Positions 37,345 to 37,634 of a stretch of 64,000 nt of DNA are shown here, one piece after another. The notes under the pieces are model-generated. The model was not told the origin of the DNA and searched no databases. It saw only the letters and a list, made by a program, of their open reading frames with translations. Origin of the DNA: a virus (lineage: Duplodnaviria; Heunggongvirae; Uroviricota; Caudoviricetes). The stretch lies in IMG/VR virus record IMGVR_UViG_2913147268_000005; one strand, 5' to 3'. Every line of letters begins with the position of its first letter. Position 1 is the first letter of the stretch. The position numbers were made by a program, and so were the translations under genes.

Positions 37345-37399
37345 AGCCTCCTCCCGGGTCCAGAACGCACTCAGCCGGGTATGGTTCAGCCCATTTTTC

Positions 37400-37545
37400 C
37401 CGGCGTCTCATGCCGCAAATGTTAACTGCTGCCTGGTTAACATTTGCTGAAAAAGCCTGTTAACATTTTTTCCGCACAACAAACTGAATAATAAAGATAA
37501 AAACCGCAAAAATGCCCGGGCAGCCAGTTAACATGTTAACTGCCC
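37400..37545. promoter_or_regulatory. cluster of GTTAACA palindromes upstream of terminase (candidate cos/pac or operator)
   Basis: AAATGTTAAC-N9-GTTAACATTT, CTGTTAACAT, and the 18-bp perfect palindrome CAGTTAACATGTTAACTG. Confidence 0.45.
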
Positions 37546-37634
37546 TGAAACGGGAATTTTTTCTCTGCGTGAGAGGGGGCGCGGTGTCCAAAGCGATCGT
37601 TTTTTACGCCGGATGATACCCCCCCCGGGTTGGG

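Follow-up and report, generated by a model that had tools for sequence, protein, structure and literature searches.

The DNA analyzed here is a 64-kb stretch (hereafter the window) of the Caudoviricetes virus record IMGVR_UViG_2913147268_000005. It carries on its minus strand, in this order, the gene of an HNH endonuclease, a spacer, and the genes of the small (TerS) and large (TerL) terminase subunits. The present study concerns a cluster of GTTAAC repeats in this spacer, located 72-198 nt upstream of the GTG start codon of TerS and downstream of the HNH gene, and its probable role in DNA packaging. An initial annotation, made from the sequence of the window, had noticed a cluster of GTTAAC palindromes before the terminase genes, including a perfect 18-bp palindrome and a 10-bp inverted pair, and had proposed that it was either a recognition region of TerS at a cohesive-end (cos) or headful-packaging (pac) site, or an operator. 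The cluster proved to be real. GTTAAC was found at positions 37421, 37436, 37459, 37527, and 37535, and at 12 other places across the rest of the window; the five-copy cluster spans 37419-37542, and every copy within it is a copy of the longer word ATGTTAAC. Given the background density of GTTAAC, the probability of finding at least five copies within a 125-nt span is 5.9e-11 (about 3e-8 when corrected for all spans). Moreover, ATGTTAAC occurs seven times in the whole window, compared with 1.43 expected, and a count of at least seven was reached by 0 of 100 shuffles; the two copies outside the cluster are isolated.

As shown in Table 1, the repeats were designated sites A to D. Positions written as +n are counted along the minus strand from the predicted left end of the packaged DNA, such that +n corresponds to window coordinate 37574-n and +1 to 37573. 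Site A is the 18-bp palindrome, present as it had been described, in which two copies of the word are arranged head to head. Site B is a lone half-site, and sites C and D form the inverted pair; the pair itself was confirmed, but its arms are 12 bp rather than 10 bp long and are separated by 9 nt. The T-tract spacer between sites A and B is probably bent DNA. IHF may bind to this spacer, in which the element ATTCAGTTTGTTG, as read from the sequence, agrees with WATCAANNNNTTR at seven of nine specified positions and is an IHF-like candidate only.

Table 1. Features at and around the GTTAAC repeats of the window, together with a related island
Feature	Position	Strand	Description
DUF3950 gene (small)	37982-38242	+	Pfam E=4.4e-19; divergent from HNH
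HNH endonuclease gene	37635-38000	-	Pfam HNH E=2.7e-7; directly upstream of cos, in a position like that of HK97 gp74
G8 run	37619-37626	-	-46..-53 from the cut; invariant in the 12-sequence and 4-way alignments
Predicted 10-nt 3' cohesive end (cosN equivalent)	37574-37583	-	CGCGCCCCCT in the TerS sense; by homology to Lys8385Vzw
Left-end core	37552-37573	-	+1..+22, CTCACGCAGAGAAAAAATTCCC; A6 tract at +12..+17, strongly conserved
Site A	37525-37542		Perfect 18-bp palindrome CAGTTAACATGTTAACTG, head-to-head pair; +32..+49 of the left end
T-rich spacer	37467-37524	-	T tracts at +62, +71, +79, and +91
IHF-like element	37477-37489	-	ATTCAGTTTGTTG, within the T-rich spacer
24-codon hydrophobic open reading frame	37460-37534	-	MLTGCPGIFAVFIFIIQFVVRKKC; from the central ATG of site A to a TAA in site B
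Site B	37455-37468	-	Lone half-site AAATGTTAACAGGC; ATGTTAAC core 37459-37466 = +108..+115
Sites C/D	37415-37426 and 37436-37447		Inverted pair GCAAATGTTAAC-N9-GTTAACATTTGC; +127..+159
Site C core	37436-37443		+131..+138
Site D core	37419-37426		+148..+155
TerS gene	36781-37344	-	187 aa; GTG start at +230, good Shine-Dalgarno sequence; Pfam Terminase_2
TerL gene, HK97 type	35123-36784	-	Pfam TerL_ATPase and TerL_nuclease
Protease-capsid fusion gene	33122-35059	-	From the open reading frame list; function taken from the BP-4795 and FSL SP-016 annotations
PICI-like island, about 11 kb	L184:1-11730; L219:1067-12320		E. coli S1-CAM-02-A, between tRNA-Pro/yejM and yejO

The end of the packaged DNA was located by comparison with a phage whose ends have been determined. 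The Shiga toxin (Stx) 1 phage Lys8385Vzw was induced and its virion DNA was sequenced, and PhageTerm classified it as 3' cos type with the 10-nt overhang CGCCCCCCCT (PMC7946995). Its record, MT225100, ends with this overhang (...GGACACCGCCCCCCCT) and starts with CTCACGCAGAG / CTCACGCAGAGAAAAAATTCCCGTTTCAGGGCAGTTAACATGTTAACTGG..., which corresponds almost base for base to the window from 37573 downward. Because the ends of Lys8385Vzw are homologous to this region, the 3' overhang of the window was placed at 37574-37583, and its packaged left end would start at 37573; the cohesive-end sequences of the two phages differ by 1 nt. The suggestion of a cos or pac region is therefore supported as to the neighborhood of cos, given that the end of the near-identical phage is 32 nt from the large palindrome, but the actual cleavage would take place outside the interval that had been singled out. 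Because the predicted cut is just outside that interval, the repeats are better regarded as a candidate accessory (cosB-like) part than as the cut site. Except for Lys8385Vzw, none of the phage records of close relatives was opened at cos, all being prophage-derived or arbitrarily opened. When IMG/VR was scanned with the left-end word CTCAYGCRSAGAAAAAAT as a pattern, 120 loci were found. Three contigs (L126, L130, and L135) begin exactly at CTCAYGCRSAGAAAAAAT (CTCACGC), a contig identical to the window (L168) begins 1 nt before CTCACGC, and the record of Burkholderia phage Bcep176 (L216), in which the left-end core is conserved, ends 10 nt ahead of CTCAYGCRSAGAAAAAAT. The loci noted as having the left-end word were L126, L130, L135, L121, L110, L167, L173, L176, and Bcep176 (L216). 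The phages that share CTCAYGCRSAGAAAAAAT differ widely in host and GC content and represent at least four N-terminal types of TerS.

The long spacer that contains the repeats is specific to E. coli lineages, and none was found in other genera. An alignment of 39 unique long-form sequences (65-100% TerS identity) showed that the repeats are under selective conservation. Nine of 38 columns were variable in the ATGTTAAC cores, compared with 121 of 169 in the rest of +23..+229 (Fisher p=6.5e-8), and all nine variable core columns come from a single lineage (L088-L090). In that lineage every copy is jointly GTTTAY/RTAAAC, and the symmetry of site A and of the C/D pair is retained. Within each lineage, the flank of site B (3-4 bases) matches one half of site A, being TGGC, TATACCC, CACC, or TAC, while the lineages differ from one another. 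The sites are located at +33/34, +40/41, +108/109, +131-133, and +147-149 in four of five diverged lineages; L091 departs from this pattern, its last two sites being at +142 and +158 owing to an insertion of 11 nt that contains an extra copy. The distance from C to D is constant at 16 nt in all lineages compared, and GGCAG in the C-D spacer is conserved. In the ATTCAGTTTGTTG region, ATTCA and GTTG are invariant in the diverged lineages and in a terminase-less satellite that is described below. A 4-way alignment of the window, the satellite, L088, and L091 also conserves the cos core, the site cores, the T tracts, ATTCA..GTTG, and the GGCAG between C and D. As to the comparison with cos regions of related HNH-terminase phages that the initial annotation had put forward, the motif is conserved in these phages and the end mapped in Lys8385Vzw lies beside the repeats.

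TerS carries an N-terminal domain of the helix-turn-helix (HTH) type. Residues 2-57 match Pfam Terminase_2 (PF03592, E=1.3e-8), and profile matches in PDB were obtained with the DNA-binding domain of SF6 G1P (4zc3) and also with 2cmp and 3zqp. An AlphaFold model of residues 1-56 (predicted local distance difference test score 93-96) superposes on 4zc3 with a template modeling score of 0.84 and a root-mean-square deviation of 1.6 A; the domain also resembles the small terminases of PaP3 and NV1. When phages with different TerS proteins were compared, the left-end core (+1..+22) was found to be common to phages with at least four unrelated TerS N-termini, and the element at +30..+50 varied with the TerS N-terminal type; for example, GGTGCGAACTTTCGCC accompanies the MAKR..IDW type. 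Site A (at +29..+56) was present in 97 of 99 unique sequences with a TerS of the MLT..KRKF type and was missing from 8 of 10 unique sequences in which no MLT-type TerS was detected, the exceptions being the terminase-less L184 and L162. Because the sites track the TerS N-terminal type and TerS has an HTH domain, the repeats were assigned to the HTH domains of TerS, which we infer to bind them. A C-terminal tail (..KKGxxGKKxxKxxAAxKxxxRFxxxxPPKL..) is shared by TerS proteins with unrelated N-termini (window 36781-36900, minus strand; L110, L121, L130, and L131). It is probably a TerL-binding tail, and its common occurrence suggests modular swapping of the DNA-binding domain of TerS.

The same block was also found in an element that has no terminase. 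L184 is an 11.7-kb element with an integrase, Ash, a D5-type primase, SSB, and capsid and decoration proteins. At its end, the G run is followed by the same cohesive-end sequence, by the left-end core, and by all four sites (A to D) at their usual positions, beyond which the DNA is unrelated. The same island (L184/L219, Table 1), present in a complete E. coli genome (S1-CAM-02-A), is similar to phage-inducible chromosomal islands (PICIs) and also has an HTH regulator, Icd-like proteins, and PerC, besides the integrase, Ash, primase, SSB, major capsid, and head decoration proteins. A satellite-type cos region was present in 50 of 5426 complete E. coli genomes. The layout of the island is as expected if the repeat block were a sufficient packaging signal that is used in trans. 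In having a helper-type cos core and repeats without a terminase, the island resembles cos-carrying satellites (SaPIbov5 with the HNH-cos staphylococcal phages, and E. coli PICIs), a likeness of sequence that concerns this related island and not the window. Two GC-rich loci (L162:8728-9500 and L181) have the cos core together with a TTGTTAA(N5-7)TTAACAA palindrome at +32..+52 and further TGTTAAT copies at +116..+127. In L162 there is no open reading frame of at least 80 aa before +787, and weak Terminase_7 and HK97-gp10-like matches lie upstream; L181 has no TerS-like open reading frame. These loci may represent another satellite type.

Taken together, these data make it likely that the cluster is an accessory, cosB-like array of TerS binding sites in a lambdoid prophage of the Stx-phage family with an HK97-type 3' cos. 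The TerS recognition proposed in the initial annotation, with TerS as the putative ligand, is supported by the position of the end, the selective conservation, the tracking of TerS type, and the retention of the sites in the satellite. In the mechanism that we propose, the terminase and the HNH protein would nick the concatemer in a staggered manner around 37574-37583 to give the 10-nt 3' overhang, DNA from 37573 downward would enter the capsid first, and packaging would proceed toward TerS, TerL, and the head genes. The HTH domains of a TerS oligomer would bind site A and, over the T-tract spacer of about 55 nt, sites B and C/D, while the spacer would bend and might bind IHF. The TerS complex would then anchor TerL (via the C-terminal tail of TerS) and the HNH protein on the adjacent cut core, and would thereby give packaging its specificity and direction. 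The number of TerS subunits bound likewise belongs to this inferred mechanism.

Relatives in contigs were found by a scan with an alignment; a scan of these contigs with TerS alone found none. In the TerS relatives from other genera of Enterobacterales (L002-L023), the gap between the HNH and TerS genes is only about 110 nt long and contains a strongly conserved block, consisting of a G run, GGACACCGCGCCCCCTCTCACGCACAGAAAAAATTCCCC, a ribosome-binding site, and ATGTTAACA at the TerS start. The counterpart of this short-form block in the window is 37552-37626. In these other genera, the central ATG of site A is the start codon of TerS (TGTAAAC-ATG-TTAACA). The TTA-ACA at the TerS start is retained in 19 of the 22 loci, and the three loci without it (L018, L020, and L022) instead carry copies of GTTAAC or GTTTAC there or close by. 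GC-rich Burkholderia phages retain TGTTAATGGCTTTAACA (TGTTAA..TTAACA) at the same place; in L162 and L181, the palindrome is out of step with the reading frame of the TerS start. Moreover, a C/D-like pair, AATGTTTAYACCCCAGCGGTAAACA, is located inside the short-form TerS open reading frame at about +245..+268 (L002-L023 and many IMG/VR loci), where it encodes an N-V-Y-T-P-A-V-N linker. Mean third-position conservation was 0.85 in the core of this pair versus 0.53 in its hypervariable flanks (p=5e-4), and the right-arm codons GTA and AAC showed a third-position majority frequency of 1.0 (35 unique segments); the test was anchored on part of the left arm, and only these two right-arm codons are free of that bias. 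The short-form inverted repeat looks like a DNA signal written into coding sequence.

The comparison with the short form also bears on the origin of the long spacer. Site A of the long form corresponds to the ancestral ribosome-binding site and start codon, and the stretch past site D (ACGCCGGGAAAAAT) is similar to the short-form TerS linker downstream of C/D (ACGCCGGAAAAAAT in L008). Given these two correspondences, the long spacer probably arose when the 5' part of TerS was rearranged or partly duplicated. The same correspondences, together with the lack of a long spacer in other genera, could be taken to mean that the repeats have no function and are left over from the rearrangement by which this part of the gene was moved or duplicated. 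We regard this as very improbable, given that the cores are strongly conserved against a diverging background, that the sites have fixed positions in lineages of 65-97% TerS identity and in the satellite, and that the same elements are constrained at synonymous positions in the short-form relatives.

The overlap of the short-form site A with the ribosome-binding site and start codon of TerS could also be explained if the palindromes acted as hairpins of RNA (or single-stranded DNA) in the late transcript and so regulated the translation of TerS or the stability of the mRNA. As single-stranded DNA, site A folds with -6.5 kcal/mol and C/D with -11.0 kcal/mol (z -3.8 and -6.0, respectively), and changes in the arms preserve complementarity, G-T pairs included (L091 and short-form loci). 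However, hairpins do not need one sequence word that is common to all sites, the lone site B is equally conserved yet unfolded, the RNA fold of the whole spacer is unexceptional (z -1.6), and the satellite retains the sites without a TerS gene after them. A search of 36800-38400 against Rfam at E<=1 found no family and no terminator was detected, which also counts against hairpins, and we consider this explanation quite improbable. As for operators, which the initial annotation had offered as the alternative, repeated palindromes are typical of them, and the sites could serve either a phage regulator, such as the product of the nearby DUF3950 gene, or a host regulator. The sole promoter-like match, a weak sigma-70-like one on the plus strand, is formed by the motif itself, and a terminator scan found none. 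With no convincing promoter or terminator, no second cluster of the motif in the window, and an array that keeps a fixed distance from the cos cut in phages and satellite alike, which an operator would not need, we give operators barely any chance.

Several observations weigh against the assignment of the array to TerS. Many of the sequences compared are closely related, so that the counts are not independent. Given that TGTTAAC and TGTTTAC half-sites coexist in single short-form loci, the concerted change in L088 is no proof of a change in specificity, and the covariation within the palindromes is equally expected of hairpins. The phage groups compared differ in their HNH and TerL as well, so that the link between sites and TerS is one of correlation. 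Moreover, TerS of HK97 (gp1) binds one 15-bp site, at +15..+29, via a non-HTH substructure (PMC11331095); its site being a single one, the conserved A-tract core of the window could be the true or main TerS site. These last two points also favor the possibility that the repeats, although part of the packaging signal, have HNH, TerL, or a host architectural protein such as IHF or Fis as their ligand, with TerS acting only on the A-tract core at about +10..+30, as in HK97, whose TerS site contains an A/T tract (PMC11331095). The strong conservation of the A6 tract in the window fits this possibility as well. It nevertheless appears unlikely, given that the window TerS is not homologous to HK97 gp1 (BLASTP E=0.3, no sequence similarity), that its classical HTH suits short repeated or palindromic sites, that the +1..+22 core stays constant over four TerS types while the downstream palindrome changes, and that the repeat motif is unlike the IHF consensus.

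The proposed array of TerS sites was also compared with known packaging systems. In phage lambda, cosB consists of the R3-I1-R2-R1 sites, which are bound by gpNu1, with bending by IHF. The array resembles cosB in lying between the nicking site and the TerS gene, on the end that is packaged first, and in being composed of a short word repeated in both orientations over about 120 bp (five copies at +32..+155 before TerS at +230, as presumed sites of TerS binding). The A/T-rich spacer that separates the first site from those after it, which is probably bent and contains an IHF-like element, may be a further similarity. As in lambda, TerS has an N-terminal HTH-type DNA-binding domain. However, lambda has a 12-nt 5' overhang and a terminase of the gpNu1/gpA type without an HNH partner, whereas the module of the window has a 10-nt 3' overhang (taken from the near-identical phage) and an HNH gene. 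The motif differs as well, and in the window TerS is Terminase_2 and TerL is of the HK97 type.

The module also has features of its layout in common with HK97 (gp1 TerS, gp2 TerL, and gp74 HNH): the order HNH-cos-TerS-TerL, a TerL of the same type, a 10-nt 3' overhang (by homology in the window), a run of G residues that precedes the cut by about 45-50 nt, and, immediately within the left end, an A/T tract. In the HK97 record, which starts and ends at its cohesive ends, the run is a G9 at about -43..-51 and the end is GC-rich, and the sole PDB sequence match of the window TerL is the HK97 large terminase (6z6d, E=1e-9). The two differ in TerS, which in the window is non-homologous to gp1 and belongs instead to the SF6-like HTH family, and in the distance from the end to TerS, which is 49 nt in HK97 and 229 nt with five repeats in the window. 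SPP1 and SF6 are phages of Bacillus that package by the headful (pac) mechanism and lack both an HNH and defined cohesive ends; their G1P binds to repeated boxes on bent DNA, which lie next to its own gene or overlap with it. The window TerS has an N-terminal HTH domain homologous to that of G1P (PF03592; 4zc3), and the sites of its short-form relatives overlap the TerS open reading frame; the motif, however, is unrelated, and headful packaging does not agree with the defined cohesive ends of the near-identical phage or with contigs that end at a fixed base. Accessory TerS-binding repeats at cos sites are of a known kind, and the combination found here is that of an HK97-type nuclease core with HNH, an SF6-type HTH TerS, and a lambda-like array of multiple sites. 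No description of the repeats came up when the literature was searched for the exact strings of the repeats and of cos.

The 401-nt region showed 90-100% identity to 94 phage records, nearly all of Stx1- or Stx2-converting phages (for example BP-4795, 2851, and YYZ-2008), and, of 5426 complete E. coli genomes, 1287 contain the cos region, with a maximum of seven copies in one genome. Relatives carry ATG where the TerS gene of the window starts with GTG. In L092-L094, TerS (P0036, 138 aa) is shorter by about 50 residues and apparently lacks most of the linker between the HTH and the C-terminus; the cos spacer of these loci is of the window type. The DUF3950 gene accompanies this cos region in most, not all, lineages. 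The DUF3950 protein was considered as a binder of the sites and rejected, given that the L088 lineage has the sites but no DUF3950 gene. The 24-codon open reading frame between sites A and B is intact in most E. coli copies; it was rejected as a gene because it is truncated, frameshifted, or altered in L088-90, L164, L153, and L147 and its substitutions are mostly non-synonymous, and it is probably a relic. Elsewhere in the window, runs of N at 39994-40233, 41425-41434, and 55594-55603 break open reading frames in the lysis and tail-fiber-like regions.

For the wider family, we put forward, tentatively and as something a little short of probable, that a widespread TerS of the Terminase_2 type, operating with an HK97-type TerL and HNH, uses the GTTAAC array as a portable and modular packaging signal. 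In most Enterobacterales, the sites would lie inside the TerS gene, at the start codon and the NVYTPAVN linker. In the E. coli Stx lineage, they would have been rearranged into a 229-nt leader that came to be lambda-cosB-like by convergence, and terminase-less satellites (in about 1% of complete E. coli genomes) would have copied the block for packaging by these prophages, Shiga-toxin phages included. The module offers a natural comparison, an HTH-type TerS with an HK97-type TerL and HNH, which HK97 is unable to offer because its TerS is unrelated. The left-end word CTCAYGCRSAGAAAAAAT could be a widely usable marker for the 3'-cos ends of this TerL/HNH lineage. The interest of the array derives mainly from its being so common in Stx phages and from its apparent acquisition by satellites. 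If the bases that constitute the packaging signal were known, it would become clear which terminases can package which prophages and satellites, and cos-plasmid or transduction tools for this phage family would become feasible; this packaging specificity bears on the spread of stx and other cargo.
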